Made by a program: the position numbers and the translations under genes | Notes under the pieces: generated by a model | Databases searched by the model: none | Told to the model about the DNA's origin: nothing | Seen by the model: only the letters and a program-made list of their open reading frames with translations | Assembly (NCBI GenBank): GCA_003344405.1 | Contig: NOWV01000149.1 | Span: forward strand, 1 to 64,000 | Source: Trichoplax sp. H2 | Lineage: Eukaryota | Direction of reading: 5' to 3' | DNA length: 64,000 nucleotides | Part shown: positions 14,838 through 62,681 of the stretch, piece by piece | Numbering within the stretch: the stretch's first letter is position 1 | Layout of the letters: each line of letters starts with the position of its first letter

Positions 14838-15860
14838 ATGAATTCAATGTTAAACAACAGTAACTCGACAAACCGTCCATCGATGTCAAATACTCAGCCA
14901 GCTCCAGACCTTACTTATAGTCATGTTCTAATGGGCATCATTGGAGGAATGTGTATCATTACCAATGCCTTCATTTTCATAACCATCGTTCGACGAAAAA
15001 AGCTGCGTACTCCTGCCAATGATATCTTGCAAAGTATGTTTATCAGTGGATTTTTATTTGGTGCTGTTTACATTCTACCGAAATGGACCAATTTGGAATA
15101 TTTAAGATGGCCAATCTACTGTTCATTATCAGGTCCAATTGGTGTACACTTTACGCTAATTTTCAATTTTCATCAGTGCCTTATCTGTATTGATAAGTTG
15201 CTTGCCTTGCGATGGCCATTAAAATATCGTATCTCCATTAGCCATTGCAAAATGATCACAGTCATTATTGTGATATGGTTAGTAGCAGCTTTTGCTGCGT
15301 TCTCACCTTTAATGTTTTTCAGACCTATCAGCAATGTCTATTGCATTCAAAGAAGCAGGGATGTGGAAAAGGAAGCTTTATATTTAAAGATTATTTACGG
15401 TCTAGTCTTCTTTGTGCCTCTCATTCTGATGGTTATTTCCTACACTGGTATCATAGTTATAGTTAATTCAAGAACAAGAATGGATCGCTACAGAAGCGAT
15501 AAACATATTGATCAGAATTTTTTTTCAATTACCATTAAAACTGCTAAACAAATGGCAGTTATAGCTGGTGCATTTGTAGTGCTGTGGTTACCATTTATTG
15601 CTATAAGTCTTTATGCTGTCAGTAACCCTTTTGCGCTATTTTTTCAAAGAAGCTGGTTTCAGCCTTTGTTTGAAACTCTTCGCTTCTTGGCATTTTCCTA
15701 TCCGGCTATAAATCCAATATTTTGCGCTTACTATGTTAATAGTATTCGCAAAGCCTTGTATCAAGATGTAGGACGCAAATTGACGGTAGTCAAGAAACCT
15801 CCCTATAGCAACACTAACAGCACTAATCTTCCACTAAAGACTACTTCACAATCCTTTTAA
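14838..15860 (+). CDS. Class A orphan GPCR, 340 aa, intronless CDS
   Basis: N-terminal N-glycosylation sequons (NNS, NST); 7TM; DKL in place of DRY followed by WPLKYR; FFVP; WLPF; YPAINPIFC; good Kozak gccaccATG. Confidence 0.94.
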   Translation: MNSMLNNSNSTNRPSMSNTQPAPDLTYSHVLMGIIGGMCIITNAFIFITIVRRKKLRTPANDILQSMFISGFLFGAVYILPKWTNLEYLRWPIYCSLSGPIGVHFTLIFNFHQCLICIDKLLALRWPLKYRISISHCKMITVIIVIWLVAAFAAFSPLMFFRPISNVYCIQRSRDVEKEALYLKIIYGLVFFVPLILMVISYTGIIVIVNSRTRMDRYRSDKHIDQNFFSITIKTAKQMAVIAGAFVVLWLPFIAISLYAVSNPFALFFQRSWFQPLFETLRFLAFSYPAINPIFCAYYVNSIRKALYQDVGRKLTVVKKPPYSNTNSTNLPLKTTSQSF

Positions 15861-18800: not shown

Positions 18801-20498
18801 TATGCTGTTTATCTACATGGAAAATGATTTATTCTTATGTCCATTATTAAACCTACAAAGATTTATTCTTCTGAAAATGGATCTAGTTTGATATTATTTC
18901 CGTAACCGTTGATAATATAATCAGTATTGTAGCTGTGATATATATAACCTGATTTTCAAATCCATAGTAACCATTGGAAACATAGGACCATAAAGACAAC
19001 ATCAACAATGTCGTTGATAGCGAAAAAGTTTCAATTTTATGAGTACAATGTCAACGGCTACATAATGTAAGTTTTCATATTTTATTTCCAATGGCGCCGC
19101 TATCAAGGAATGAGTCTAAATTTGAGTTATAACTAATTTTAATGAAGCATCATGTTTTATTTATTAAATGAGCAGAAATACTCGGAACATACGATAATAG
19201 TCAAAGCCTTAAGGGATCAATTTCATATTTATGAACGAAGCTAATCAATGTAAAAGATAAGACCAAGAAGTGATTAGAGGAATAGAACTATATATAATTG
19301 AATGAAATAAAATATATTTTTAGTCCTTAAAAAAGATTGTAGATAACAGTCTAATTCGCTTGCTTCACTAATGAGCAAGGTCTAAATTACTTTAGGGTAT
19401 CTATCTTTTCGAAGGAAACAATAGGTTCTGTTCAAGATAGTTATTCTGGCAGCATGAAAACTTCTCTACGCTAACATAAATTAAATTTATTAATCAAAGC
19501 AAAGATACTGCCTTTCGTAATCTTGCTAATTTTGATGATGCTAATTACGCAATCGACTTAGAGGACAATTCTTGTTATGAATCTAGATCATCATAAGTGA
19601 AACTAAAAAATACCTTAATTTAATCATAATTGCCGTAATTGTCAATTGCTTTGCATCCAGTTTACATAATAGCATCCCAAAATGAATCTACGGTTATTAA
19701 TATTGAAGTTGATAATTACTATCAGCACCATAAGTATACCACAGAGTAATATTTTAAGATATTAGTCTAGTGCAATCCAATCATAATATTTAAAGTTTAT
19801 TCTACAATATTTATCTTCAATTTTGCTAGTAATTTAGCATGTTATTACTATATGAAAATTAGTATTTTAATTTCTATGCTTACATTTAATGTATCCTATA
19901 ACCATAAAATATTCTTAATTTATTATTCTCCTCTTTATCAACAAAAAATCAATGTTTATCAGACATACAGTGTTACCAAGCCTAGGCGACTAAAATCTCC
20001 ACCGGCCTATAAATCATTACTATTGTCTGGGTTTACGTTAAATGACATATTTTTGCTTCACCAATTTCAAATTGGAATAAGGCTATAGTTAACAATTCGC
20101 TAAAAAAAAGTAATTTACCGATATTATTAAAATTTCGATTTTACTTTTGTAGATAGCTAATATCATGATGCATAATGGATAATTTTAATCAATTGTTTTC
20201 AAGCTATATTTAGTCCATTGTATATCGACCATTGAATACTTTTTTTAAATGTTCTATAAATATCTGTAAGCCTGGTACAATTTTTTTAATTTTACGTTTT
20301 TATTTTTCAAGAGAAAAACTATTTTACATGCTAAAAAATCGTACCTATCAGCAGTTATCGATCTCCCGGAAAAATTTGACTGGTATCATTCCAATATTTG
20401 GATAATAATCTAGACCTTAATTTTTGAATATTCTAAACGTCTCTCTAGTCAATAAATATATTTCAGCGTTTTGGCTTTCGTTCTCTCTCCGATTAAGC

Positions 20499-21491
20499 AT
20501 GATCAACTCAAGTTACATTCAACAAATTGATATCATAGCTGTTATGGTATGGTCTACTGTTGGTTCATTAGCCTTAGTAGTTAATTTAACATTTATCATC
20601 ATGTACTGTATTAGAGGTTGGCCTCGGCGAGTTATCAGCAATATCTTAATTAGTCAATCAATTGGGCACATTTTGTATATTGCAGCTTACGTCTTTCCGA
20701 GATTGGCATTTGTAGAATGGCAAAGTTTAATCATTTATTGCAATTTTTTCCCTGCCTTGCAAATTGCTATCATTATAATTTTATTTCTACATCCACTTTG
20801 TATCAGTATTGACTGCTATTTAATGATATTTTATCCAATGTATTATCGCTGCCGTAAAGTTCAGCGTAAGATGAGGCAGATGATCATTATAATTTGGGTA
20901 GTTGCTATCGTTGTAGCAGTTATATCTTTAGTTACATTTCATCACTGGTCTAATAACGGCTGTAATCAAAGTTATACTTCACCACTTAAATCTGTTTACA
21001 CGTTGTTTGTAATGGTTGTCTGTGCCTGCTGCCCCTTCATTATTACTGTTCTATGTTACTGGCGAATTCTTAAGCAATCATTAAATCAACCAAAAGCTAG
21101 CTTTGACAAAAGGATGCCAATATTGAAGCGAAGAAATAGTCCTAATTCAATGGAATCATTATATAGTAAAAATCGAGCCGTAGCTAAATTAATGGCTATA
21201 AACTTTATGCTTTTTAGTATTTTATCTTTGCCCTTTCTTACATTATTTACAATTCGATCGATAACAAGAAGTGATATTGGCACTGGAGCATTTGTAGTTT
21301 TACGGTATATTTCACACTTTTATTTTATCTTAGCTCCAGTAATTAATTTATTATTTATTCACTATATTAATGCAGCAGTTAAGGAAGCTATGCTTAGTTC
21401 TAGAGTATCATGGAGTAATAGTTCGATAAAATTAAGTATCGGAAGATCCTTTCGATCGCTTGCAGGTACTGTGGATGGTACTACTGTATAA
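20499..21491 (+). CDS. Class A orphan GPCR, ~330 aa, most diverged member of the cluster
   Basis: The track ORF starts at TTG 20424. First ATG is at 20499 (MINSS), just after an acceptor-like tatttcag at ~20466. 7TM; SIDCY..YPMYYR, IIW, CPF..CYW, SLPF, APVINLL. Confidence 0.88.
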   Translation: MINSSYIQQIDIIAVMVWSTVGSLALVVNLTFIIMYCIRGWPRRVISNILISQSIGHILYIAAYVFPRLAFVEWQSLIIYCNFFPALQIAIIIILFLHPLCISIDCYLMIFYPMYYRCRKVQRKMRQMIIIIWVVAIVVAVISLVTFHHWSNNGCNQSYTSPLKSVYTLFVMVVCACCPFIITVLCYWRILKQSLNQPKASFDKRMPILKRRNSPNSMESLYSKNRAVAKLMAINFMLFSILSLPFLTLFTIRSITRSDIGTGAFVVLRYISHFYFILAPVINLLFIHYINAAVKEAMLSSRVSWSNSSIKLSIGRSFRSLAGTVDGTTV

Positions 21492-34405: not shown

Positions 34406-34786
34406 AAAGGTGTAAATCCAAATGAAACCAATCGTTTTATCAACAAGCAAGCAATCGTTGTTGGATAGTATTAGTAACAAATGATTATTTCTTACAATAG
34501 ATGAAGTAATATCATCAAGTCAATCGGCTGTTCCAAACTGCTTCTTTCCACATCGACCATAGCGCCTGATCGTATTGAAGAAATTGAAGAATATTATTGA
34601 CTACTTCATAATTTTGGGCAATCCGTTTCGGTAGCCCGTACCAGCGGCAATTTTATTCTTGATAAGCGTAACAAGAAGTTGAGGCTTATTCTGCAACTGG
34701 TAACAGCACTGAACGTCTACAATTGTAAACGCACCGATTGGTTGATCCATAAAAATTGACTATCTTCCTAGTTTTCAGCATTCGCC

Positions 34787-35281
34787 ATGGCGGAAAAACT
34801 AGGTGCGATCGCTGGGATTTGTTTAATTTTATTTTGTGTAGGCGCAGTTGGCTTTTACTTTTGCTTGGATACTGTTATGAAGATGTCTGAATTGAACACA
34901 TACAAAGCGATGCAATGCTCATACCAGGACGGTAGAATTATGGATTCACCTTATCGGCAGGCAGTTGTTGATGCCGCTGCCTTTGAAAAGAATGCCAGTG
35001 ATATTTTTGCAGATGTTACAATCGCCTATCCATATTCACAGTACATGTACGCCAACAATGCTTCATTATACGAATTTTTAACTCTTTGGCAAACGAGCAC
35101 TGCTAGATCGTGTTATGTAGATGTCAAATCGAATAGCACGCGAAAGCCGGCGGTTCCGGGCCCGTTTGATAGTGCGACATCTAGTATCATTATAATAAGC
35201 ATGATCACCTGCATACTATCTCTATGTGGAAGTTCGTTTGGTTTACTGATGATTGTGAAAGCAAAACTGACCATGAAATAA
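34787..35281 (+). CDS. Orphan two-TM membrane protein, 164 aa (paralog A); topology like KCNMB/BK-channel beta subunits
   Basis: Kozak cgccATGG after acceptor-like gttttcag. N-terminal TM, ~105-aa luminal loop with two Cys and NAS/NST sequons, C-terminal TM. Aligns by eye with the 38124 ORF. Confidence 0.8.
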   Translation: MAEKLGAIAGICLILFCVGAVGFYFCLDTVMKMSELNTYKAMQCSYQDGRIMDSPYRQAVVDAAAFEKNASDIFADVTIAYPYSQYMYANNASLYEFLTLWQTSTARSCYVDVKSNSTRKPAVPGPFDSATSSIIIISMITCILSLCGSSFGLLMIVKAKLTMK

Positions 35282-37680: not shown

Positions 37681-38123
37681 TATTGCGGGTATGACTGCCG
37701 TGTTGCCTATTTATCCAAATTCCGGTTAAAACGTTATTCATCCTTTTAACGCTGTAGAAAGTCCTTCGAACTGAACTAGTGTACGCACGTTATACTGGGA
37801 TAGGATAAGGGTTCTCGGTCAAGGCCAATCCTCCGTCTTTCACCGAACAGACTGGATTGCACTGATGTCCTGAAATTCTCCACTTCAAGGGTATTTTATC
37901 TAGTCATTTATTTAAAATATTATTATTTACTAAAAGAAAGTCGCGATAAAGCCTTTATCTAATGAACTGTCTGGTTTGTAAATCCAGAAAAGTCAACACA
38001 GCATTGTTCTTCAAGCATCCAAGTTATTGATTGTATTGGAATATTAATTAACTGTTCAAGAAGGAAATATAGTCTATCAACAACGTTGGTGGATCCCGGA
38101 TACTCCACAGCAACCTGGTCAAA

Positions 38124-38639
38124 ATGGCTCAATCCAACTCCTTTATAAAATATTGCTTATCGATTTTAATGTTATTAATAGTAGTTATTTTTTGCGTTCA
38201 TGTTCTAAGTATCGCTTCGCGAATCAATCAATACACATTGATTACCAATTGTACGTACATAAATGGCAGTTTAGTCAGTCAGCCTTACCGAGGGGCGGTA
38301 GTTTTTGCAGATGCGTGGAATCCTTCTACCAATGTCAGAGTTATTACAAAGATATTACATCCTAATTCTCCTTATACTATAGTCAGTGACTATCGACTTT
38401 CGACGTATTTGTCACGTTGGAAAAGCAGCAAAACTTTGAATTGTTACGTTGATCTAGCCTCTTCGGCTGTTGTAAAGGCAGGAGCTGCCGATCGAATGCC
38501 AATTGCTTTTTATATTATTATCTTGATTCCGTTTTCCTTCCTCTTGCTGTTAACTGTTGCTGTGATTTGTTATAAGATTCGTCGTTCATTGAAGCCGGAT
38601 AAGAGTAGTGCAGTACAGAGTAACGTTACTAGTATGTAG
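38124..38639 (+). CDS. Orphan two-TM membrane protein, 171 aa (paralog B)
   Basis: Same architecture as paralog A, with shared motifs N.Y....C.Y..G.....PYR.AVV.A.A, I..P.S.Y, L..W..S....CYVD..S....K; sequons NCT and NGS. Confidence 0.82.
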   Translation: MAQSNSFIKYCLSILMLLIVVIFCVHVLSIASRINQYTLITNCTYINGSLVSQPYRGAVVFADAWNPSTNVRVITKILHPNSPYTIVSDYRLSTYLSRWKSSKTLNCYVDLASSAVVKAGAADRMPIAFYIIILIPFSFLLLLTVAVICYKIRRSLKPDKSSAVQSNVTSM

Positions 38640-42102: not shown

Positions 42103-45100
42103 TTACGAGTATTTATGCCTGCACGACTTGTGTTTAATGCCAAAACAAAATCTCGCAGACAATTTTGTGCTTGTAAGTGTACTTAATTGTGAAACTTGCC
42201 CTATATCCTGTAAATATCTTTTTTCGTCTTTGCGATGAAAGTACCAAAGTACGGCATAAATAATGACCTGCATTCCTTTAAAAACAATCATAGTTATAAA
42301 CATATTCTTGCTCATATCTCTGTTGTCATACTGCCAGCAAAACTGATTATGATCACACTCAATGTTCCAGAGCGAACATGCTTTATCCATGACTATACCC
42401 AAGAATATTGGGCCTAGTAATCCTCCTATCATTCTTTTCATAAACCCCAATACTCCTAAAGCAAACGATACCTGGCTTTCCGGGACGTTCCTGCAGAGGA
42501 TATAAGAACTTTAGTACCTTAGTTACCGTTTCTAATTAAAATTTCACTTTATACATCTTTAATTGATATGTCGATTTTTCTCTTGCCAACGTAAGCATAA
42601 ATAGTAAGTACGTGGAACTATTTTTAGGGCTTACCTAAGGATGACTGTTAATGTTGGCGAATAAGAAATATAAGCAGCAATAACTGAAAAAGTTATACCG
42701 ATCATTAAAGCATATAAAGGTTGACAAATTGGAACTTGACAAAATCCTGGTGTAGCAGAAGGTACGCAAGTGCAATTTTTATAAACCTATTTTAAATACA
42801 GCAATAAAATATTGAAACTGTCTCAGTTTTCTGTTCTGTAAGTAAGATTGTGCAAGGCATAAAAGTATTGTATAGTCTTAGTGAATGGTTCATATGCTAT
42901 ACATTGAAATTTCAATTAATATTTAAGCTCTAGTATATTTATGTATCGTTTGTAATTACATTTAACCGTAAACAATGACTAGGATATTCACATTTTAACG
43001 TTGGTTAAAATACTTTGGGTGCGCTATTTTTCTCATTATTTTCCTTAATTCTACATATGCCAGTAAGCGAATTAAATATAAATATGAGTCTTCTAATGCT
43101 TTTAACGATTATTCGTAAAACATGATAGTTGGAATGCTATAGCACCATAAAGCAGTAATGTTGGTTTATTACTCCATAATTATAAGATAATTGCTTCTTT
43201 AGTTAGGTGTGGGTATAAGTTGATTTAACAAAAATCTGGATGCAGGGCGAATTCTAAAGATATTATATTTATTGAATATTCTGCTTACAAGGTTATTATT
43301 AAAATCAGATTCTTTTAAACTACTGCAGCCGGCATGGCAAGGGGATAAATAGGATATGCCATCACCACCGCATACAGGTTCAAATGGAACGGAATCGCAC
43401 AAACAGTGACTATTACATGCCGCCTTGTATGTTATATTGGCATACCTATTAATGAAAAGTCAATTATCTCAGATTTATGAATAATATCGCTCTCGTTATG
43501 ATAAATTTACATCTAATTATTTATTTCGATGTGCTATATTCTATTTTCACTTCCTAATGATAAGTAAGCTAAAGTGCTTAACTTACGTATTTAAAGGCAA
43601 TGAAATATCGATTTGTGAATTATTAAAATTATACGGGATATTCACACCAGCAATGGGTATGTTAGGACATGATATCAAGTATACCCCTCCTAGAAGAAAG
43701 TTACAAATACTTGTGAAGAAGCAAAATCTGGAAATTTGAGATCCTTTCAATTTCCAGCGTTTGATTACATAGCCACCCTGTCGAATATAATTATGATTAA
43801 GGTATCATTTGGTGATAAATCTTGTACAATGATGCCTGCATTTTGTATTGCAGTAAATTTTTTAAGAAGAATCGCTTTCTAGCAATTGATTAAGCAGATA
43901 TTGTTGCTTACCGCAACTTGGCCTACAGAGGCAATGAAAGAAATCAAACCACCACCGAGCATACTAGCTACCAACAACGAATAGCCTGTTTGGGCTTGAA
44001 TGTATTGAGGAAGAAACATTGTAAGACCATTGATAGCTACTTTATCCACAGTAATGCCGAAACTTGCAAACATAAAAATTTTATTGGATAACAACTGTTT
44101 GATTGCTTTTGGTAAATCGATCATACGATTTCCATACTGATAATCCATATGTTGAGTAGCCACTGTGGCTTCCTTAATTCTCTCTTGCCGTGTATTGTAG
44201 TATGATGGTAAATGGCGTGGAAATGCAAACACGAATAAAACTGTTAATGCAATTAGAACGACAATACCTAGATAATTAATCCACCAAGCTCCAACCCATG
44301 CAACGCTATTAGAAGTTAAACCTGTTCATGTTTAAAGAAAACATAAAATTATTGCATTATATCCCAAATATTACATATCATATAAGATTTAAAAGTATTT
44401 ACCAAACTTTTGCGATTATGAAATCATGATAACACAATCGATTAGCTATTACCAATTTTAAACTTACTGATCTGAAACTGTTAAATGTAAATCAATGAAT
44501 AATGTATTTGTCATGGGAGTCAAATGATTCATGTCTTGAGTGAGCTTACTATAATTATTATTTTACATCGTATCGACGATTTCTGATGTAAAAACAGCTT
44601 CTAGTCAGATTCATAATTTCTAATACTTGCAATCAATGAATGCATGTATTAAATTTTTGCATCATGTTCCGTAGGAAATTAAACTAATTAGAATGATAGT
44701 AGTAAGATGATGGGGCAGTGACAGAGATTACATATAGCAGTTCTTTCTAAATTATTCTACCAATTCATTCTGCGATATTGACACAGTTAACGGTTGTAGT
44801 ATCTGTAAATTTATTTACTATTGCTGGTGTATAGAATGGTGAAGCCTGGTGAAAGGAAATTTTTAGGTAGAACCATCATTTTCTCATTAATAACAGATTA
44901 ACATTATATTTCATTCATTATCATTCCTCCGTGGAGGTCGGTAAGTAAAGTACTAAAATATTCGATGGATTTTCCATACATATGCTACAGATACATTCTA
45001 TCGAAACGAAATAAATTACGATATAGAATGAATAGTACTGCACGGCATACATACTATCATAAACGTCCTATTTAGAATTTTAGTTAGTATCGTATCTACG

Positions 45101-45932
45101 TAATATCAATACCATTAGGTGGATCTTTAGGCCAATCAACGTATACATTTGTTAAAGCACCGCCAATAACATATCCTAATGTTGGACCGATAATGCTCAT
45201 CATATGAATAATACCAACGTATAACGGAGAGATAGTGGGGCTAACGTTTTCATCTAAATATGCTACACTTAAATTATATCGTGTAGCGTTACCTGCGCCA
45301 CATAAAATTTGTCCTAGGACGAATAAAAAGGGACAAATCCAAAATGTTGAAGGCTCATAACTTTTTGAACATTTTTCATCGATTGATGTTGTGTTGATGC
45401 TTCTATGGCATAAAGTTTTACCGCTATCATCTTCAAGATAATAGTAGTCATCGACAAGGAAATGAGGGGCTACAAACAACATTGTACCAACTATGTAGAG
45501 AAGTAAGCTATAGCCGATCCAACGACCTTTATGCTTTTGGCTAGCATAAAATGTTAACAAAATGCCATTAATTGCAGCGGAGATATCGGCAGAACTCATA
45601 ATAGCACCGACTTCTGTCGATGTCATATTATATCGTTTTTCCAAAATTGGAGCAATAACAGCTTTAAATCCGAGAAATGCTGTTCCGATTGTACTAAAAT
45701 AACATAGGATGATAAGTAACCAAAAAGAGTTATTAAATACTTGCAACCACTGTGGACGAAAGTATCCTAAGCCACATTCTGAAATTTCATCAAGTGAGTC
45801 AAGATCATCATGAAGATCATCATAATCGTCATCCTTGTCATTAAATTGTTGATTAGTGTCGCCAGCATTATTTGTATAGCTTATTTCTGATGGATGAATA
45901 GGTAAAATACTGCTCAGCTCCTCTTGAGACAT
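42103..45932 (-). CDS. Organic anion transporting polypeptide (SLCO/OATP family). Exons 45932-45113, 44321-43912, 43777-43587, 43445-43289, 42786-42635, 42490-42103
   Basis: CGLGYFRPQWLQ, LEKRY, HKGRWIG, AYLDENV..SPLY.GI..IGP.LGY..GG, signature WVGAWW, FPRHLP, Kazal-like CNSHCLC..FEPVCGGDGISYLSPCHAGC, GPI.LG..MDKAC.LW...C.....CWQYD. All five introns are GT-AG and in frame. Subfamily not assignable. Confidence 0.95.
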
Positions 45933-48900
45933 GATTCTTCATTTAATCTGTTACTATTTAGATGACATTTAACGATGGAAGTCAATTTAGATGTTATAAT
46001 ACCTCTAGGTCACTAGCCACGGACGTTTAGCGACTCTACAATTTAATATCCCATATATAAGAGTTGCAGAGCATGAAGTACTCGCATTAAATATTCTATA
46101 TTACTTGTATAAAGAAAAAAATGTTATTTTAGCTTGCACCTGCCAATTAAAAATTACCTTTTCATTGTAGTGATCTCAAGTAAACATAACAAAGCTTATT
46201 GCATTTCAGCATTAATTGTTCTTGTTACAACATCCACTGTTTTTAAAATAGCTGAATAAGATAGTGAAAATCGACTTAAAAAGTGTTAATTACATCTGTT
46301 CGAAATCATAATTGGAAAATAAATTCTAATTATCTGATATTAAACAGTTACTGTAACAAAGAAATAAATGATAAGCTGAATTTATATAGATTAATATAGT
46401 TTTTATATTTCTCTTATAGGTCAGTGAAATCTTGGATACCATCCCGATGCCGCATTTAAAGATCTGGTTGAGTGCTCAAGTATTAATGCAATCCTTGATT
46501 TGAAAGACCTTTGTTTATTGCGTCTAATATTCAAGGCAATGTATAGTCAAATTATTTTTATTATATCCTGGGCGCTCTGTTCTACAATCCTTATAAGCAT
46601 TTCTCTGACCTGTAATACACCACTCTATTGATATAAGGGTAGCGTGTATAAGTAACCTATGAAAAGTGAAACATAGGATAAACGTAAGCTGTTTTGTTGC
46701 GTTTAGAAGGATGTATTTTAGCCTAGTGAATTGGAATTTTTTAATTTGACAAAATTACAAGTTGATAAAACAGATTTGCAATATATCAGCATTTGCGGCT
46801 ATAATAATATTTACGAAAGATGTTATACTATATACCACATTGAAGGGAAATGAGCTACTTTTTAGAGGTCTTATTAATGCATATTTACAGTACAGTATTT
46901 ATTCTTATTTTAGATATCAATTTATATCCACGTATTGCTACCTGATCATTTTCTAATTATGTAATTATTAATGTTCTAATTATTCGTCCATTCATTATAG
47001 GTTAGGTTTTAAAACTCCGCGATGCAACGTTAGATGGCTCGTATCAGTTTCAAAAATTCATTCCAATCAAGTAATTTAAATTTGCCGTTACCAAAAAGCA
47101 ATCTTTAAGATCAAGTCATGTTAATCATGATTTGGAAAATAACGGTAACAATTTTGGCCATACTATCCTATCGATTCATAGACATTATTAAAAAGATTAA
47201 AGTAGCCATATAATAACGGATAAATTAATAATGAAGATTAGATTTTTCGAGATAATATATGTACTGTTCCAAAGGATTATTACTCTCTATAGTATTTGAT
47301 AGCATTATTTTACTTTAAATATGGTCATTTAATGTAAGCATAAGAAAGTGCTTTAGCGATAAAATTAGCAAGAATGAAAATTAATTATTTCGCTATGTAA
47401 ATAATATTTGAATAGCTAAAAGGTTTGATATCCCATTGTAACCACGAATCTTAAAATGAAGAAGATAACATATCATATTTGACAGTATAAAATGGATAAA
47501 AGCTTGTCATTAAATATACTTTTGAGAAACTAAGCTTAAGCAATGCTAACTATTTAAGTTGGAAAACTTGATTATTTGCGGTTCAGTGCAACATTAAACA
47601 GTATTTCAACTCCACGAGTGTCATTAGGCCTCATTTAAGGTTTATACTGGCCAATTGTAATCGGTATCGTAATTTGGATAGTAGTTTTATTTTAGCTAGA
47701 TTTTTTTCTCGTTTTTAGGCCTCTCATAATTAGAATAGATGATTCCTACAGTAGTGAAAATATATAGAGTGGCATAGTTCTTATTTGACGAAAGTTCTAG
47801 AATTTAATATTTTATGAAATTTATAAAACGCAAGCTATGTATACGATATAATAATAATCTTGTTGTTCTATACTCGGGATGTATAGATTTTAGCCATATC
47901 TTAATACATTACTAGCATTTCTGATTTTTCTAATTTTATCTGCTGAATAGGTTGGTACTTTAGCTGCCATATTATTAAAGCACAAACTTTACTAAACAAT
48001 GCAAACGTTCATACCTTGTGTCATATTTCAAATTTAATAAATCGAAATTTTAATCAGACAGTTACTTATTACTTTATGCTACCGACTAAAATTGGTCGAG
48101 ATAATCTTTCCACTTGAACTCCTGTAGTGGTAATGACAGGCTTTCCTTCTGTACTCAATTTCGCCTGTCTACATTTTTCGGTATTTTATGCTAAAGTGAA
48201 AAAGCATGAACAGTTAGCACTGTACCAAGGATCTGTACCTGGTTCAAGTTTTTTATAAATGCCGAGCAATTATCGTGTATGCTACAAACCATGTCTTGTA
48301 TTCTCAACTATATGCTATTGATATGATACTATTTATGTCTGTAGCCTGGGTTATAATTATCGCTTTATGTATTTTAATTCTGAAATACTGACAATTATAA
48401 TTAATGTCATATAACAATTTCTGAACTATAATGAGTAACAAATGAATAGAGACAAGAAATGATGATCTAAAAATAACATTTAATCCAGAACGACTACAAT
48501 AGACGCCGCTTTAGCTTATTAACCTAAACTATCAGAGAAAATTTTATTCAAAGATTGCGAGCAGTAAAGTCAATTTCTTGAAAAAGATTTCATTGTAGCA
48601 GTATGCTTCGGTTTTTATATATTTGTTAGTCTGAAATGTTATGTTGTAGTGTATGACGTTGACGATTTGAAACGTTGAATTGATGGTGTATAATCTCGAC
48701 GTATTATCATAGACGCCGACTCCCTGATGTGATTAATCTCAAAGATTTAAGGCATTGATAAATAAAGACTATAGTAAAGCCGCGTTTCTATACTCCTGCA
48801 AAGAATAAGCGTAGATTTGAATGTAGCTTAAATTAGATTAAGTAAGGATTATATTAATTATTATTAACATAGATATATCGCGTTATTACGCAAATGCCGG

Positions 48901-50411
48901 AAGTGTTGACATGATGATTTTCTTGATTTTATTATTTATATTCATTGTTTCTAGATATTAATTTCTAATCTCTTTGCTACAGTACTTCGTTTGTTATTGA
49001 TGAATTGCTGACAAATTTTATGATATTGTCTACAAGGAAATGAACAAGATTAAATCTATTGGATAACAGATTAGGCAAAGTCAATTGATTCATAGGCGTT
49101 GAGTTTATGCATGCACAAAATGTTCATTGCATGTTAATATAGGCATTTTAGTGCTTGTAGTGGTTAAAGATGAGCGAAAATGTTGGTAATGTATCCAACT
49201 TGCAAGTCATAAAGTCAGCGGAGATTTATTTGACGCTTTTACAGTGCAACAAGGCATCCGCTACTTCGAGAATATGAGAAAATTAATTATAGAACATAGT
49301 TGCTAATTGTAATACTGTAATAATTTCCGTATTCTGGTTATGATTGATAAATTCTATAATATAGTAATAACACGAATATATTGCCTATTGAAATCCAATC
49401 CATTGTTTTCCCATCCCGTTTTAAATTATGGGTAGATATAACTCAATAATGATTATCATATAATTCTACAACTGGAGGAATCATAACAATACTAGCTGTC
49501 GTTTAATTTACAATTGCAAGAGAAAAGTAGATGGCAGAACAATCAACAAGTTGACAGATCACAAGGTGGCAGATAATAATTCTATCTAATCTACCTTAGC
49601 ATTGTTTGATGCTATTCAAATCATATTAATCATTGTTATCTATCCTTATCATAATGCCCAATAGCATGTTGTGTATTTGATTGACTACCGAATTTAAATG
49701 ATAAATTTGTTTGTTTAATTAGTCGACTCGATTGTATATATTTACGCTATGTTCACCTTTCTGATGTGGCAGCAACACCCTCTCGACCAGTATAGTTTAC
49801 TACATCATCTTGGATTGACATATTGAAAAGTGGGCAGACATTAACAAGTACTAATACTTATGTTAAAAGGGATATATACCCAAGTTGAGAATAGTATTAT
49901 TGTGAAGTTGGGCATATTCCTGTTTAGTAAGGTCGTTAATGGATGTGTTTTGACCGATGGTATGTTTTACAGATGAAATGTTATGTAAAGTGTCTTCACT
50001 ATCTTGTATATAGCCGTAGAATAATAGTTTACCAATGGGATTACTTGCCTAGGTTAAAATATTGAACTGTTAACATTAACTTGAGAAACCGAACAAAATA
50101 TGGAAATTTGTATTCTTCCTAACCACGTTCTAGAATCACGAATAGTGATAGCCTTCTTTTTTTTTATTTAATTTAGCATTTAGGTGAACTGCTTTCCGCT
50201 GCTTTTACCCAAAGAGATTGGAAACTTGTACTTCATTTTTTTGCAAGTCATCAAGTAATTATAATCGGAAATGTGTCTTAGCTTGACCACCTAGCTAAAG
50301 ACCACTGCTAATGAACTGAAGAAGGAAAGAAAAACAATCTCTTCACGTACTGTATAAACTTATCATTTACGTCACAATTACAACCCTTCCATTCAGCCCA
50401 GATTAATCGAC

Positions 50412-51566
50412 ATGCAAGTTGTTGTTAAATCGCAATCAGGAAATTTACTGTTGCTCCAAGGTGAAGCCAACGATACTGTTCGTGATTTAAAGGAGAAGTT
50501 ATATTATCATGTACATAATCCGCCATCACAACAACGTCTAATCTATCGTGGTAAACAACTTGATGACGAAAAATTATTAACATCTTATTCTATTGCCAAT
50601 AATGCTTTAATTCGCTATTTACCAGTATCAAAGGAAGAAATTCGATTGAATTGCAACCTGTTTACGGGGCAGTTTCTATCGCTCAATGTTGAGTTAGATC
50701 AAAGCATTTGTCATGTTAAAGAACTGTTACATCAACAAACTAATATTCCTATGGAAAAACAACGATTACTATTAGCTAATAAGCAATTGAAAGATACGGA
50801 AACATTACGTTGTTATGGAATGCAAGAAAATGATACTATCAACATGGTATTGAAATTACCTCGTCGTATACCTTTACATATTAAAATGAATCATGATAAA
50901 ACTATAACTATTGAAATCGAATCGAATAGTACTGTCGCTGACATTAAAGAAGTGGTGTTTATTAATAATAATATGCCGCCAAATAAACAACGTTTAACGT
51001 ATAACGGGAAAGTCATGCTGGATTCAACAACAGTCGATGACTATGGTCTTAAAAATTATGATACTATCTACATGATACACCGTCGGAAATCACGAAATCA
51101 AGCCGTTATTGTTCAAATGGAAAATGATCAGACTTTAAGTGTACCAGCTAAAGAAGATTCTACCATTCAAGAAATTAAACATTTAATTGAAGAACAAACA
51201 AACATACCTTGGCGTCAACAACGATTATTACATGATGACGTTCTACTTAATAATTCCTCGACATTAGCTGATTGTCAACTGCAATTGCCTTGTCAATTGC
51301 AATTATTTTCATCAGATATCTTGCAGATTTATATACGACTTTCAGTGGGTAAGCAATTGTCACTGGAAGTCTTAGAAATGGATAAAATTTATGATATTAA
51401 AGGTAGGATTGAAGATAAAGAAGGCATATCTATTTTACAGCAAACATTACGATTTAAAGGTAAAATTTTGAAAGATCAAACCACTCTAAAGTCTTGTGAT
51501 ATCGGTAGTGGGTCTATTCTGCAACTTAAAATTAATGTAGATGATCGAAATTGTTGTGTTATGTGA
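50412..51566 (+). CDS. Penta-ubiquitin-like-domain protein, 384 aa, no Gly-Gly, C-terminal CCVM (CaaX/CCaX)
   Basis: Five ~75-aa units with ubiquitin-fold signatures (QQRLIYRGKQLDD, KQRLLLANKQLKD, KQRLTYNGKVMLD, QQRLLHDDVLLNN, QQTLRFKGKILKD; IKGRIEDKEGI); intronless; ends DRNCCVM*. Confidence 0.92.
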   Translation: MQVVVKSQSGNLLLLQGEANDTVRDLKEKLYYHVHNPPSQQRLIYRGKQLDDEKLLTSYSIANNALIRYLPVSKEEIRLNCNLFTGQFLSLNVELDQSICHVKELLHQQTNIPMEKQRLLLANKQLKDTETLRCYGMQENDTINMVLKLPRRIPLHIKMNHDKTITIEIESNSTVADIKEVVFINNNMPPNKQRLTYNGKVMLDSTTVDDYGLKNYDTIYMIHRRKSRNQAVIVQMENDQTLSVPAKEDSTIQEIKHLIEEQTNIPWRQQRLLHDDVLLNNSSTLADCQLQLPCQLQLFSSDILQIYIRLSVGKQLSLEVLEMDKIYDIKGRIEDKEGISILQQTLRFKGKILKDQTTLKSCDIGSGSILQLKINVDDRNCCVM

Positions 51567-51976
51567 GATATTTGCAAGGAAGGAAAGTATCTCACGGGTT
51601 ATATTCGTTATTGGTCGTCAATGTGAATCGATCGCTTATAGATGCTATTTTTGAATATAAGACTATCATGGATTTATGGCATCATTTAGATGAGGTAATA
51701 ACAGTTAGAATAGCATGTTCGATTGTAAATGTTCCTCTTCTATTGATTATAATAATAATAATGAGCTTGTTTCCTCTGCTGCGACATAAAAATGTTCATA
51801 TTATAATTCTAATGAAGACATATCATAAATAGGCTCAATAGTTCCATTAATAAGATTGCGGTTACAGATTAGTGGAGATTCGATTAATGCAAAGCCTAGT
51901 ATTGCAAGTGCAAGACGGCTTAATGTCAGAATTGCTCAATGCAATCGTGTGATAGGCTTGTATTTGATGAAATAAG

Positions 51977-52610
51977 AATTCGACTCCATCGGTAATTTTG
52001 TAATTAGGATATAACGATGGTATCATATCACCGAGGGTATAATAAATAGATACGAGTATATTACGAAGGATTGAAATTAGCACGATTATTACTGAATTAA
52101 TATGATTCTTGGGTGACTTGATTAATGTTATACTATATATTCATCTTATTTTATTGCTAATACTGAATTAAAGTGTTTCTCGCGTGGTATGATTAGCGTT
52201 ATGCCTAATGTTATTTCATGGCTAATAAATGGCTAAAATTTTACTAGCTAGAATTGGAGTCGATAAGTAATTTTGTAATTAGAATATAGCAATTCTATCA
52301 TATCACCTAATATATAATAAATAGATGAAAGTCTAAAGGATTACAATTACTATGATCTATGATGATAACTACTAAATTAGTATGATTTTCGTGTGACAAG
52401 ATTAGCGTTGTTTCGTGGCCAGTGAATGGCTAAAATTTTAATAGCTTGAATTTAGGTCTATCGTTAACTTTGTAATTAAGATATAACGATTGTATCGTAT
52501 TACTTAAGAGACAATAAATATATAGGATGATAGCTACTGAATGAATGTGATTCTTGCGTGGCAAGATTAGCGTTATTTCAGGGCCAGTAAATGGTTCAAA
52601 TTGGATTAGC
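51977..52610. repeat. Degenerate direct repeat, 3 copies of unequal length (~275, ~200, ~160 bp)
   Basis: Anchor taattttgtaatta.gatata.c.at..tatc.tat.ac at ~51993, ~52268 and ~52466; each copy ends with gattagcgtt..tttc.(t/g)ggc.a.t.aatgg.t.aaatt. Confidence 0.8.
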
Positions 52611-55430
52611 TATAGTTCCAGTTATTTGCCTACGGCTAAGGGAATAATGATCGGTGTACGCGCCTGTTTTGCTAGATATGGGGTATAACTCGCTTGCAGG
52701 CTAATTCCAATCGGGCTCTAAACAACATTTATTGATATTGCATTTTCCTGCTTTTCGTCTATAGAAGTTAAGCTAATTGGAAATACGAGTTCATGGTAAT
52801 CCATTTGAAATAATGGCTAACAACGTCTGCTGTAATCTTCAATTTTACACATATTTACTTAAAATATGTAAGTAGCACCTGATTACGATTTTATTTTGCC
52901 ATAGCTGATATTGACTTGTTCCAATCAAGTTTTAGCTATTGCGGCACTATCCACTCATATTATGACCAGCCACAATGATTAAGTGTAATCTTTATTTACC
53001 TTTGTAAGATATACATTCTACGTATGATATCGATTATTTTGCGTGAATGTTTTTAAATGAAGGCCATGCCCATAATTTGATTCATAGCCGCATGATATCT
53101 GAATAATTATGATTGAGTAAATGGATTGTAGTTCAGAGCGATTATCTAATGTGCCTTATAACATTTACTTCTTTTCTCATCTCTTTTTTTAAAGAAGAAT
53201 TGACGGGTAGCATTAGCTTCGTTCTTTATACTATTCTTGATTGACATTATTAGCTAGTGGCTCCGATATGAAGCGCCGAGATCTTTTCTTAGTTCACATT
53301 TTCATCGTTCTAGTAAAGTAAATTCCTCCTGTTACAACATTTCTCCACCTCATTTATTGTCACTTTTCTAGTTCGAGTAGGTGGGTGTTACAAATTGGTT
53401 TTGTAACAAGAAAAGAGTTAATTAAACTAATTTTACGGTTTTATCATTAATTACCTCCAATTCTAGGGTACGTTAGTCAATCATTTTAATAGTTCACGAT
53501 CATAGCTTTTATATTCATGTAAGGATTGCACAACAGCAAAGTAGGTTATACTAGTCGTCCACTCGGGAGACGACAGCTCACGAAAAATGTTGCAAACAGG
53601 ACCTTAGTTAACGCTAGTCTATTTCTTTAAATTACTTAATATATATATATACAGATCCCCCAGTAAGTTACAGATCAATGCTTAGTATATCATATCGGTA
53701 AAGTATAGTCGTAACAGTGGGTTGTCATCAACAGGTTTAATATCCAAGTGATTAATGGTGGATAGAGGCATAACTGTCCACTTTTGTGATTGGTATACAG
53801 CATATTAAGCCTGTACACAATACTGTACATTGGCTCGCTGATGATTCAATAATGTATTAATAAGAACATTGATTTATTCAGCGTCCTTCTTTACCCAGCA
53901 GTTATTTTGAATTCAATACTGTAGTTTTTCAATATTTTTTTTTTTAATCAGGGTTGAGGTTGATCAAGCGGTTACATTTACAGCCTACCTACGTGTATAC
54001 TAGGGGTGTTTACTATCGAGTTAGGACTCAAGCTGATCTCTAAATTTCAGCAATGTTCCAGGTGATTTAACCTCACTACTGCATGCGTATGTCATTGCTT
54101 TATCTCATGGATTTAGGCGCCTTGTGAAATGGACTTCGTGGCATGATTCTTTTCTTTAACCGGCCATCTAGGTTAGGATGCAAAGGCATGTCCACATGTG
54201 TCCAACACTGGACGCACTAGCGTGCCATTAGGGCAGATGTCCTATTGATATCGAGGACTTGTGATGAGGGTAACAGCTGGAAGAATACAATGCTAGTCAC
54301 CCATCAATATTTTTACACCTTGTTATCATGGATGGATAAGATGCACCTTCATCTCTTCTACAGTATAGACACGATCGAGGTCAATAGAACCATAGAAATG
54401 GCTAGAAATATGCAAACGTTGCTGTTGTCCTTTGCAATGAAGAAAAACATTTGCCACCCATCTTGACAATGGATAGGCGATCCTGCTGTGCTGACGTGGT
54501 GATGGAATCGATGATGCAGAAAAGGGACAAGCTCGTTGGGTTTCTTTTAGCTCTATGAATAGAATACACGTAGTAGAAAGTAGCATGTGTCATGGAAACA
54601 CTGTGGAGTTTTCTCTCTCCTCTGGTGTATGATATTGCAAATTCTAAGTCTGAAAGATGAGTGCATACATCATTGCATATACACTGTTCTTCGACCTAAA
54701 TTTAACGGACGAATGTATGATTTAGCGGTATTTTGATGGACCCATACCGTTCTTTACATCGAGGTAAGAGATTTTTCTTCCCTCGAAGACTATCTCAGGC
54801 TGTTGATTTGGATACTATGCCGTCGAAAATGACTGCGGCTCTCATGGCTCATACTCAACCATGTTGACAGCGATTTGTTCTTGAAGAGTATTTCTCTTCC
54901 AGCAGAATGACTACTATAGTACGCTACTGCATACCGTACCGTACTAGAGTGGTTGATCACATCGTTATTGAACAGTATCTTCTAGGCCACCGTACTTACC
55001 TCTAATCTCGATGCATTTCCATTCAAGAAATCGTAGATCTCCATACTCCAACTACTCCATTGGCCGTCCATTAAGGAGGCCATGGATTTATTTAGTTTAT
55101 AAACTAGCCATGTTGCCATTTTTATTTTTGGAGATGAGGTCATGCTTGACCGCTGGTACGGTACCAGCGACAGGGTACGATACGGAAACGCGGACAGGCA
55201 GACTGCAATGAACCAGTAATGAGGATGATGATACAGCCCAGCGAGTCTGATACTGTGACTATCATGCGAATGATTGATGCTGGTACTAGCGGCTCCGTGT
55301 ACAGTATAAAGTACTGTAAACTGGATACTGTAATGACAGTACTATGTATCGATACTGTCCCGGTCCCGGTCCGGACTAATCGAGTCCCTAGACTTGGCCG
55401 GAGCGATTACTTCTTCCAATCTAGCGCAAA

Positions 55431-59882: not shown

Positions 59883-61628
59883 AAACGGAAGCTCGATTAT
59901 TATAAAGGGATTATCATACCTATAGCAACAATTTGCTGATGTACTATACGTTATCACGGAGGAATATTACTTTCTTGCCATCATTTAGATATTGTGCCCA
60001 TGGTACAAACAAACAGTATTACTCGGGGCTGTAATAATATTGATTATGATTGATTATTTTCAATTTAGCATCAGTGATTGATCCTATTATAATTTATTAT
60101 TTCTAGTTGGCGCTACGCGTCGATATCATTGCTGTTGAGTCGAAAATATAAAACTGGGAACCTGTAAATTTTAGTTCATTGAAAAACTTCTAGCCTCTCA
60201 CTATTGTAAACTTGAGAATAAAGATTTATGCGTGTGCTAGTATGTATCCATAGTAGTGATTTTAGAGTGTAGTTACTGTAGCTAATTTCGATATGATAAC
60301 GTAGTATTGTTGAATACAGTTGTCATTTCTTCTATCGTGTAATATACTTGGACCAATGACCTTGCATTTTAATTCAATGATGAATCCACTTTTTATGAGT
60401 ATATAAGACTCTTGCTGGTCGACAATAGTAATAACATTGTAAGGCTAGCGCCTATCATCATGCTCTGTATAACTTTCATTTGTAATTATGGATAGGAAAT
60501 AATATATGAGTAGTCAGACTACAGTTTTTTAACTTAATTTTAATGGAATAAAAAATTTAGAATAAGTTGAGCTGTTTGCGTTGGTTTCGGGAAGGCATGC
60601 ACAATTGAATTCTCCTGTCCTGGCAAAATTTTTTATATTAATGGTGGAAATTTGAACTTTATTAAAGCATACGAACCTACTTTAAGTGATCGTTCCCCTC
60701 TCGTAACTATACAATACTGAATTAATAATATTTAGCTGTAGTAATGTTGCATCTGCTTACGTGTCTTTAAGTCCAATTAATACACATAGGATCAAATAAC
60801 TATTAGCTATCGTGTTATAAGCGTTTGTCTGATAGTTCAAAGTGTGTAGCTCAATGCATCCATTACCCATTTCCTAATAATTGTTTTATGAATAAACGTG
60901 CTAATACGAAGGCGCTGGCTTGTGTCAACAGGTAATTTTATTACTACAGTATAACTCTACTGTACTGCTTGTCGTTGCTGATTGTGTTGGCAGCCATTAA
61001 CTGTAAGTTTAAGCTTAACACATAACAGCTTTGCAAGATCCAAGATCTAATGATCATTAGCTTTGCTACTCACAAAGCTATATACTTTACAGTACTTCCA
61101 AAAGCAACTACTACAACAGTGTTTTCCTGTCAGCATACAGAAACTACAGCTAGCTTGATAAATAAATACCTAAAATGATTCTGTAGAGAAATCAACTACT
61201 TCCCAAATTATATCAAGGTAGCGTGGAATAAATCGTATCCAGAGGATATGGTTTAATGGCCATTTTAACAGCGAACCATCACTGGAAACAGTTTAAACTA
61301 GCTATCGATAAAGATGCCATCAGGTGGTTTTGATGGACTTGGCTAAATGGCTCACTTTGCATTAAATTATGCAAATTAAGAACTGTATAAAAACAAGTCT
61401 ATAGTGTTATACTATACCGCTAGATATTATAGCATAGGGATAATACTGTTTAATAACAGGCTGTGATAACTTGTAATAACACTAAGTAATGTATTTATAT
61501 ATCATACTGGATTCAGATTTAGTTATAGCCAGTAGCAAAGTAATCTAGCATCGGCGGACTTGATCGCTTACAATTTTACTGTGTTTACTCATTTTAGAAC
61601 TACATTGATTTCATTTTGCTAGCCGAAA

Positions 61629-62681
61629 ATGATGAAAGCTGCACAAGTTGTAGAGGCAGGTGCCCCTCTCCAACTTCAAGAAGTCCCACTGCCTAAAGCC
61701 ACTCATGATGAGGTTGTGATCAAAGTGATTTCTGTAGGCGTTTGCCATAGTGATCTGCACTTATGGGATGGTGGTTACGATCTTGGTGAAAAAGGATTCA
61801 TGAAATTCGTAGAGAGAGGAGGCCATTATCCAGTAACCCCTGGCCATGAAATTGTTGGTAGTGTCCATCAGATGGGTGATGAAGTAGTTGATTTTGCTGT
61901 TGGGGATAATGTTCTTGTATTCCCTTGGATTGGTTGTGGTCAATGCCCGATTTGTCAAGCGGGCGATGACAATGTTTGCGATAAACCGAGATCGATTGGC
62001 ATTTTTTGCAATGGTGGTTATGCTGAATATGTTATTATTCCAAGTTATAAATATCTTGCTAAGATTTCTGGTGTCGATTTCCATGCTGCCACATCGCTTG
62101 CTTGCTCAGGTTTAACTGCCTATAATGCAATCAAGAAAGCGAATGTAAGATCTCCAGAATATTTGGTCATCATAGGTACTGGTGGGCTGGGTCTGATGGG
62201 CATTCAATTGGCGAAAGCAACAACTCAAGCGAAAATCATTTGTGTTGATATCGATGATCAAAAATTAAATATAGCAAAGAATTTAGGCGCTGATTTTATT
62301 GTTAACTCTAGCGATGGCAATGCAGTGCAGAAAATATACTCCATCTGTCCTAAAGGCGTCGATAGTGTAGTCGATTTTGTTAACGCCTCTCCGACGGCAA
62401 AGATAGGATTATCCATACTTAAGAAGCGTGGGAATTTAGTGCTTGTAGGATTATTTGGTGGTTCTATCGAAATCTCTTTAGTGACAATACCACTAAAGAC
62501 CTTAATTATTCAAGGCGCTTACACAGGTACTTATAGGGAAATGGTAGAGTTGCTACAATTGGCCAAAGAGGGGATCATTAATCCAATTATTTCGAAGCAG
62601 TATTCTTTACAAGAGGCTAATACCGCATTAAATGACTTAAAACAGAGGAAGATTGTAGGGCGAGCAGTAATCATCCCATAA
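61629..62681 (+). CDS. Zn-dependent medium-chain alcohol dehydrogenase, prokaryote-type (6-hydroxyhexanoate-dehydrogenase-like), 350 aa, intronless
   Basis: Catalytic Zn ligands in GVCHSD, PGHE and ACSGLT; structural Zn CGQCPICQAGDDNVC; Rossmann GTGGLG; acidic VDID (NAD preference); C-terminal GRAVIIP. Confidence 0.95.
   Translation: MMKAAQVVEAGAPLQLQEVPLPKATHDEVVIKVISVGVCHSDLHLWDGGYDLGEKGFMKFVERGGHYPVTPGHEIVGSVHQMGDEVVDFAVGDNVLVFPWIGCGQCPICQAGDDNVCDKPRSIGIFCNGGYAEYVIIPSYKYLAKISGVDFHAATSLACSGLTAYNAIKKANVRSPEYLVIIGTGGLGLMGIQLAKATTQAKIICVDIDDQKLNIAKNLGADFIVNSSDGNAVQKIYSICPKGVDSVVDFVNASPTAKIGLSILKKRGNLVLVGLFGGSIEISLVTIPLKTLIIQGAYTGTYREMVELLQLAKEGIINPIISKQYSLQEANTALNDLKQRKIVGRAVIIP

Follow-up and report, generated by a model that had tools for sequence, protein, structure and literature searches.

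A placozoan gene for five diverged ubiquitin-like units that ends in a predicted farnesylation box

Ubiquitin signalling works through chains that are enzymatically built and erased. Polyubiquitin precursors (UBB/UBC) consist of near-identical units of about 76 residues, joined head to tail from a Met1-Gln2 start and bearing Arg-Gly-Gly at the junctions and at the end, and their genes usually have an intron in the 5′ untranslated region (5′UTR) and a single coding exon. Gly-Gly is required for processing at the junctions by deubiquitinases (DUBs) and for activation by the ubiquitin-activating enzyme (E1). ISG15 and FAT10 hold two diverged ubiquitin-like domains (Ubls) in one uncut polypeptide with a C-terminal Gly-Gly for conjugation, and the SUMO-like domains of Rad60/Esc2/NIP45 (RENi) are encoded mimics of a polymeric modifier. 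The tandem Ubls of OASL are non-conjugatable repeats that bind non-covalently in place of such a polymer (PMC6019448, excerpt). MUB/UBL3 proteins have a single Ubl, which spans residues 10-88 in human UBL3 and carries MUB-specific loops, and a C-terminal CaaX prenylation box that is mostly of the geranylgeranyl type, CVIL or CTIL, with UBL3 itself described as one Ubl followed by CCVIL (PMC10511055, excerpt). The prenylated ubiquitin fold of MUB binds the backside of UbcH5/UBC8-type ubiquitin-conjugating enzymes (E2s) and regulates E2s and retains them at the plasma membrane (PMC4996978 and PMC10511055, excerpts). Here we describe a gene from the placozoan Trichoplax sp. H2 that encodes five distinct Ubls in a row followed by a CaaX box. 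It lies in a 64,000-nucleotide stretch, referred to below as the window (positions 1 to 64,000 of the forward strand of contig NOWV01000149.1, assembly GCA_003344405.1), where its open reading frame (ORF) occupies 50412..51566 on the + strand.

This ORF is the only one of at least 60 amino acids within 49500-52500. It encodes 384 amino acids and a stop (44.4 kDa, isoelectric point 7.1) and begins MQVVVK; its stop-to-stop frame starts at 50358, so that an in-frame stop stands just 5′ of the start. Pfam family PF00240 matches the whole protein in five stretches (E 1.1e-80), and every unit passes the cutoff of 25.4 bits when scanned singly. The units, all on the + strand, are unit 1 (residues 1-76, 50412..50639; 58.7 bits), unit 2 (residues 77-152, 50640..50867; 64.6 bits), unit 3 (residues 153-229, 50868..51098; 67.8 bits), unit 4 (residues 230-303, 51099..51320; 50.7 bits) and unit 5 with a short polar linker (residues 304-380, 51321..51551; 62.3 bits). 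Unit lengths are 76, 76, 77, 74 and 81 residues, the last including the tail. A PDB search aligned residues 1-225 gap-free with the same residues of polyubiquitin, so the 76-residue head-to-tail register of polyubiquitin is preserved. Measured against a reference, the canonical ubiquitin unit most frequent among the matches, the units are 27-39% identical (34, 34, 30, 27 and 39% for units 1 to 5), and identity between units is 19-33%. Pfam searches of the whole protein returned families of the ubiquitin fold only, with no UBA or other cargo-binding domain.

There is no Gly-Gly dipeptide in the whole 384-residue protein, nor in its one close relative (P0002, described below), and the count of RGG is zero. 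Residues 71-76 of ubiquitin are substituted in every unit and the junction Met1 is also replaced, the linkers carrying prolines or basic residues. Unit 1 keeps the ubiquitin-like MQ start together with the equivalents of K29, I44 and K48, and has the tail PVSKEE in place of that of ubiquitin. A basic linker, RRKSRN, follows unit 3. Unit 4 is the most diverged; it is acidic (net charge -7), has no K48 equivalent, and is reached by single ubiquitin chains in the PDB at only about 24 bits. Across the protein, the K48 equivalent is a lysine in units 1, 2, 3 and 5 (4/5) and the I44 equivalent is an isoleucine in unit 1 only (1/5), while K27 is retained in 5/5 units and V70 in 1/5, and neither L8 nor H68 is retained in any unit (0/5). 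The complete L8-I44-V70 patch is found in none of the five. Retention of K48 was rejected as evidence for chain building, as a Gly-Lys motif around this position is general to Ubl folds.

An initial annotation of this DNA, made from the sequence without database searches, had described five mutually diverged ubiquitin folds in one ORF, no Gly-Gly at the junctions or the end, and K48 and I44 equivalents in the units listed above; the profile count that it proposed as a check, the dipeptide count and the alignment to ubiquitin agree with it on each point. It had also called the protein uncleavable. Because five diverged ubiquitin folds stand without any Gly-Gly, established enzymology would exclude processing at Gly-Gly sites by DUBs as well as activation by E1, and in this sense the description holds.

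Structure prediction, likewise proposed as a check, gives five confident beta-grasp domains. Given an alignment of 42 multi-Ubl matches, AlphaFold2 reached a mean predicted local distance difference test (pLDDT) score of 88.7, with the secondary-structure elements of each unit in the ubiquitin order (an alignment-free run had a mean pLDDT of 33.5). The predicted template modelling score of the five-unit model was 0.37, suggesting domains without a fixed mutual arrangement. The linker block at residues 221-230 had a pLDDT of 66, and the tail at 380-384 was below 50. Foldseek searches against the PDB placed linear tetra-ubiquitin at the top (5b83, 7yui and 7eb9; E about 1e-36, 31-32% over about 300 columns), followed by linear di- and tri-ubiquitin, the HUBL region of USP7, the tandem Ubl of chicken OASL (7sbi) and ISG15. 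The protein is therefore best modelled as a flexible string of five beta-grasp domains with a disordered tail.

The C-terminus reads NCCVM followed by the stop, as initially annotated, and the genomic sequence and RNA contigs agree on it. The putative CaaX box, C381-C-V-M384 (51552..51563, +), sits 11 residues past the V70 equivalent of unit 5. In P0002 the end is NCSIM: the cysteine at -4 and the terminal methionine are unchanged, a1 and a2 are replaced conservatively (C to S and V to I), residue -5 is asparagine in both proteins, and the stretch LQLKINVDDRNC directly ahead of the last three residues is identical. The cysteines shared by the two proteins are C81, C288, C294 and C381. Both CCVM and CSIM satisfy the farnesylation-substrate pattern (cysteine at -4, an aliphatic a2, and Met, Ser, Gln or Ala as X). 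The linker VDDRN before the box is polar, the longest hydrophobic run in the protein is four residues, and no signal peptide or transmembrane-like stretch was found in the 384 residues. The flexible, exposed C-terminus and the cytosolic type of protein expected of CaaX substrates are thus both predicted.

Boxes with the same four residues have been studied in other proteins. CSIM is the box of prelamin A, which human farnesyltransferase modified fully in a Ydj1 reporter and whose cleavage depended on Rce1 (PMC11152559, excerpt). CCVM is the box of PRL-3, where the C170S and C170/171S forms were cytosolic and the C171S form was still at the membrane, and where a farnesyltransferase inhibitor lessened the phenotypes (PMC2635958, excerpt). 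The initial annotation had suggested that the CCaX end may receive both a prenyl and a palmitoyl group. This part has weak support: since the cysteine at -3 is a serine in P0002 and PRL-3 needs only the one at -4 for membrane localisation, the conserved feature would be a plain farnesyl CaaX box and not a dual-lipid site. Of the two terminal cysteines whose presence in relatives was to be checked, the first is kept in P0002 and the second is lost. Selection for a farnesylation box would be expected to leave this pattern of change, and selection for a Cys-Cys pair would not. From the sequence evidence, farnesylation of C381 appears likely, and residence of the protein at a membrane somewhat more probable than its absence from one.

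Contigs from four public runs (X1, X3, X5 and X11) were aligned to 47500-54500. Run X1 has even coverage and reads through the intron described here, and so behaves as DNA. RNA contigs of X3 and X5, from two separate studies, join 49959 to 50177. The transcript accordingly has a 5′UTR exon 1 (49902..49959, +), a 217-nt GT..AG intron in the 5′UTR that is skipped in both runs (49960..50176, +; boundaries from the sequence), and an exon 2 (50177..52518, +) with the remaining 5′UTR, the entire coding sequence (50412..51566, +) and about 950 nt of 3′UTR. The furthest RNA contig begins at 49902, and the true 5′ end of exon 1 may extend further. The spliced contigs measure 2400 nt (X3) and 2313 nt (X5), each contains the entire ORF, and they run unbroken through exon 2 to 52518 and 52461, respectively; AATAAA signals are present at 52316 and at 52513. 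Coverage by X11, the RNA library of a third study, extends over 50271-51196 and 51497-51691. Between 51244 and 51566, zero differences were seen in X1, X3, X5 or X11, the last within its coverage of 51497-51691. The Ubl gene is real and expressed in Trichoplax adhaerens.

Because the RNA contigs of X3 and X5 show an unspliced coding exon, the predicted C-terminus stands, and the alternative spliced end against which the initial annotation had advised a check did not appear. The description of the ORF as intronless holds for the coding region and fails for the gene, given the intron at 49960-50176. The resulting layout of a 5′UTR intron and one coding exon fits an origin from a polyubiquitin gene. 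The known 5′UTR (49902-50411, 293 nt when spliced) contains five upstream ATGs, which may be a sign of translational control. Just 3′ of the Ubl 3′UTR lies a spliced RNA contig (52383-54497, +) with pieces at 52791-52867, 53952-54059 and 54170-54230 and GT..AG joints. No long ORF was found in the joined pieces together with the RNA-covered stretch from 52383, and this RNA may belong to the 5′UTR of a separate gene, be non-coding, or prolong the Ubl transcript.

A search of 5.8 billion cluster representatives that resemble the protein in length gave one close relative, P0002 (a Logan record; 384 amino acids, 75% identical), and the next best match is 28% identical. An any-length search of 1.84 billion representatives gave 13,090 matches at E <=0.001 and 553 at E <=1e-30. 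It yielded no closer relative, and among the 150 best matches listed all others are 24-36% identical. No shorter relatives or fragments were found at E <=1e-10 among 403 candidates, and of 295 pattern matches to orthologue DNA in JGI metagenome contigs 0 were confirmed. The alignment with P0002 is gap-free over equal lengths, with 287/384 residues identical; by unit these are 56/76 (74%), 59/76 (78%), 52/77 (68%), 51/74 and 69/81 for units 1 to 5 (68-85%), unit 5 being the best conserved. When 57 Ubl units, taken from eight proteins and ubiquitin, were placed in a tree, 5/5 Trichoplax units paired with their positional counterpart in P0002; the five-unit design therefore predates the split between the two sequences. 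In a neutral simulation with substitutions only, the frame was open at 97 amino acid differences in 0/2000 runs. Between strains, one difference was seen in the coding sequence, a synonymous change of TTA to CTA (50694 T>C), and the 3′UTR has at least 6 substitutions and 2 indels. By these sequence comparisons, the Ubl ORF is under purifying selection.

The locus thus resembles several of the described systems in part. With polyubiquitin precursors it shares the head-to-tail units of about 76 residues, the Met1-Gln2 start, and the 5′UTR intron with a single coding exon; unlike them, its units are diverged, have no Gly-Gly and end in a CaaX box. A precursor of free ubiquitin is ruled out by the missing Gly-Gly and by the identity of only 27-39% to ubiquitin. 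ISG15 and FAT10 both occur among the sequence and fold matches and are similar in having more than one diverged Ubl in an uncut polypeptide, but the Trichoplax protein has five domains, no Gly-Gly and a lipidation box, and the number of domains and lack of Gly-Gly rule out a modifier of this type. The tandem domains of OASL and the RENi proteins differ in being two in number, fused to other modules and without a lipid anchor. With MUB the Trichoplax protein shares a working principle, a ubiquitin fold without Gly-Gly and with a CaaX box shortly past the last beta strand, which is not conjugatable by the usual route. It differs in that its units number five and are of the ubiquitin type, and that its box is of the farnesyl type (X = Met). 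PF13881, which we take to be the MUB family, scores 26.3 bits over the protein as a whole, where no stretch is significant and the best region falls in unit 3; unit 5 has no match to it at E <=0.01 and matches PF00240 and PF11976 only. Membership of the MUB/UBL3 family is ruled out by the five ubiquitin-type units and by a unit 5 without PF13881.

We propose that the gene originated as a duplicate of a polyubiquitin gene, retaining the register of about 76 residues, the 5′UTR intron and the single coding exon. All Gly-Gly processing sites would have been lost while the five units diverged into distinct Ubls, and a farnesylation box, preceded by a short polar linker, would have taken the place of the terminal Gly-Gly. 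The encoded protein would be cytosolic, a 44-kDa string with five beta-grasp modules that, from what is known of the enzymology, should neither be cut to monomers at Gly-Gly nor be conjugated via a C-terminal glycine. C381 would be farnesylated and afterwards trimmed and methylated, leading to peripheral attachment to endomembranes or the plasma membrane. This attachment would probably be weak because there is no conserved second signal. The result might be a lipid-tethered multivalent adaptor in which each distinct Ubl surface recruits or holds a partner, as MUB/UBL3 does with E2s. By analogy with these systems, we consider the complete reading, that of a farnesyl-anchored, non-conjugatable and protease-resistant multi-Ubl adaptor, to be about evenly balanced between right and wrong, and an adaptor role for partners in the ubiquitin system in particular to be plausible yet on the doubtful side of even.

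Several observations weigh against this proposal. The main partner-binding residues of ubiquitin, L8, I44 and V70, are mostly replaced. Unit 5 is of the ubiquitin type and not of the MUB type, a 76-residue unit without room for the lap-bar loop, and E2 binding is therefore not transferable by homology. The last 20 residues have a net charge of 0, and neither a conserved second cysteine nor a polybasic stretch near the C-terminus was found in the two sequences. Under the two-signal rule a lone farnesyl provides weak membrane binding only; since a lone farnesyl is the conserved signal here, the attachment would be expected to be weak or of the endomembrane type, or the lipid to serve as a handle for protein binding. 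The family consists of two sequences, so that conservation is drawn from a single comparison, and P0002 could be a paralogue instead of an orthologue.

The protein-binding handle leads to a different view of the lipid, in which the farnesyl group serves in protein-protein contact or as a regulated switch and the Ubls act either cytosolically or at some specific complex. Spindly, PEX19 and DNAJA-type proteins are prenylated and use the lipid in this way. The missing second signal and the neutral tail suit such a role as well, and the sequence has no feature indicative of any one soluble complex. PRL proteins also carry a basic region near their CaaX box, which tempers any comparison with them. 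With that caution, the dependence of PRL-3 on the same CCVM box for membrane localisation speaks for an anchor (PMC2635958, excerpt). In T. adhaerens, Spindly, an adaptor of the kinetochore, is reported to have its farnesylation motif, making a non-anchor use of farnesyl plausible in this animal (PMC4436830, excerpt). Overall, we regard this alternative as unlikely. The initial annotation had preferred a membrane-tethered, genetically encoded imitation of a linear ubiquitin chain, acting as scaffold or decoy. In such a model an M1-type chain would titrate or scaffold canonical readers (UBAN, NZF, UIM and UBA) at membranes. M1 chains have the same head-to-tail geometry, and linear tetra-ubiquitin is the best structural match; however, canonical readers, whether of ubiquitin or of M1 chains, rely on the L8-I44-V70 patch and on the junction between residues 71-76 and M1. 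Here the patch is complete in 0/5 units, H68 is also lost from all five, the tails at 71-76 and the junction M1 are replaced, and units only 19-33% alike are unlike a homopolymer. A precedent for chain mimicry by encoded Ubls is offered by OASL, whose two tandem Ubls imitate K63 polyubiquitin for RIG-I (PMC6019448, excerpt). We nevertheless find a chain mimic in the canonical sense quite unlikely, and a generic decoy for ubiquitin readers is not favoured by the sequence.

A role in degradation would make the protein either a substrate of the ubiquitin fusion degradation type, as an uncleavable N-terminal fusion, or a Rad23/Dsk2-like Ubl protein that docks on proteasome receptors and possibly tethers them to membranes. 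The Ubl domains of shuttle factors do bind the proteasome, and the lysines at K48 in 4/5 units and at K29 in unit 1 would be compatible with such a role. K48 is weak evidence given the generality of the Gly-Lys motif, though, and the Ubls are accompanied by no UBA or cargo-binding domain in the Pfam results, where only ubiquitin-fold families occur; we judge this role improbable. The adjacent C-terminal cysteines recall UBL3, in whose CCVIL end C113 is modified and C114 prenylated (PMC10511055, excerpt), and might suggest a modifier that is joined to targets by a redox-sensitive bond through a C-terminal cysteine, before or beside prenylation. The register is off by one, with cysteines at -4 and -3 here and at -5 and -4 in UBL3; in addition, the second cysteine is a serine in P0002 and position -5 is an asparagine in both proteins, leaving this version with a very small chance. 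The same holds, to our reading, for a decaying polyubiquitin duplicate that is transcribed without a selected function and has acquired a CaaX-like end by chance. Such decay would account for highly diverged repeats, a family of only two sequences and five upstream ATGs, yet it would hardly leave a frame that stayed open in none of the 2000 neutral runs at the observed divergence, two proteins of equal length without gaps, 12 identical residues preceding the aaX positions, and five units that are all above the Pfam cutoff with confident predicted folds.

The adaptor proposal also has to be seen against other multi-Ubl proteins. Atlas clusters labelled 'polyubiquitin-like' are present in plants, arthropods and chordates, and multi-Ubl proteins poor in Gly-Gly are common, as the 553 matches at E <=1e-30 show. 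In a survey of the C-termini of 163 proteins, 89 had their last Ubl within 20 amino acids of the end; 30 of these end in Gly-Gly (followed by 0-2 residues), 9 have a cysteine at -4, and 50 end in other ways. The nine represent four independent families, namely the Trichoplax pair, a lamprey protein with eight Ubls (XP_078740965.1, P0005; end ...PEEESSCVIL), the eukaryotic P0102 cluster (five members of 822 amino acids with 10 Ubls each; end ...GDAGREKCVIS), and P0006. The lamprey and P0102 ends are canonical CaaX boxes past a short linker, and the CVEV of P0006 is a non-canonical box. Enrichment of a cysteine at -4 among multi-Ubl proteins is suggestive, with many of the 'other' ends probably being truncated gene models. 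These other multi-Ubl proteins are only 24-36% identical to the Trichoplax protein, and none is characterised. We considered whether the terminal units that bear a CaaX box in Trichoplax, lamprey and P0102 share an origin, and rejected this because they do not cluster in the 57-unit tree, which with 76 columns has low resolution; the CaaX ends look convergent.

The initial statement that the architecture belongs to no characterised animal family is correct insofar as no characterised family was found, and needs amendment insofar as the uncharacterised lamprey (CVIL) and P0102 (CVIS) proteins share the combination of multiple Ubls and a CaaX box. No description of a multi-Ubl protein with a prenylation box was found in the full-text literature, a scope outside which subscription journals and supplements lie, and none of the papers found on ubiquitin-like proteins or polyubiquitin in Trichoplax is about the Ubl gene by title or abstract. 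The placozoan gene is genuine and expressed, is kept by selection, and joins domains in a way for which we found no earlier description. It is conceivable, if rather doubtful, that prenylated poly-Ubl proteins form a recurrent and unrecognised class, in which polyubiquitin genes of placozoan, lamprey and P0102 lineages became uncleavable Ubl strings with Gly-Gly swapped for CaaX. If so, such lipid-anchored, multivalent 'hard-wired chains' would organise partners from the ubiquitin system or elsewhere on membranes, as a polymeric counterpart of MUB/UBL3. A string written in the genome, pinned by a lipid and non-erasable at Gly-Gly would represent a different use of the fold from enzymatically handled chains, and would widen the idea of a ubiquitin fold anchored at the membrane from one domain to five distinct ones. 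The source is among the simplest animals, and the path from a polyubiquitin gene to a scaffold would be a clear one, within the limits of a two-sequence family and an inferred function.

The rest of the window contains several other genes. Four single-exon ORFs for rhodopsin-family G protein-coupled receptors (GPCRs) lie at 2922-3938, 8920-9936, 14814-15860 and 20421-21491 on the + strand (PF00001, E 1e-18 to 3e-26); they are arranged in tandem about 6 kb apart and represent a local GPCR expansion. Two paralogous ORFs with hydrophobic ends follow at 34772-35281 and 38073-38639 (+; 31% identity over 97 amino acids, E 4e-15), for which no Pfam family was found. Upstream of the Ubl gene, on the opposite strand, is an OATP/SLCO transporter gene of at least three exons (42103-45938, -), which covers profile positions 1-201, 205-348 and 483-545 of PF03137. 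At 61623-62681 (+), a single-exon zinc-type alcohol dehydrogenase (ORF 61629-62678) is 97% identical to TRIADDRAFT_29716 of T. adhaerens, in keeping with the placozoan identity of the window, and its next relatives are prokaryotic, with 65-69% identity over the full length to Nitrosopumilus, Nitrosarchaeum and other marine microbes. This gene is a candidate for horizontal transfer into Trichoplax or for a misassembled contaminant, between which the local guanine-cytosine (GC) content of 0.35 does not discriminate. The segment 54001-56000 has a GC content of 0.42, compared with about 0.31-0.35 in its flanks.

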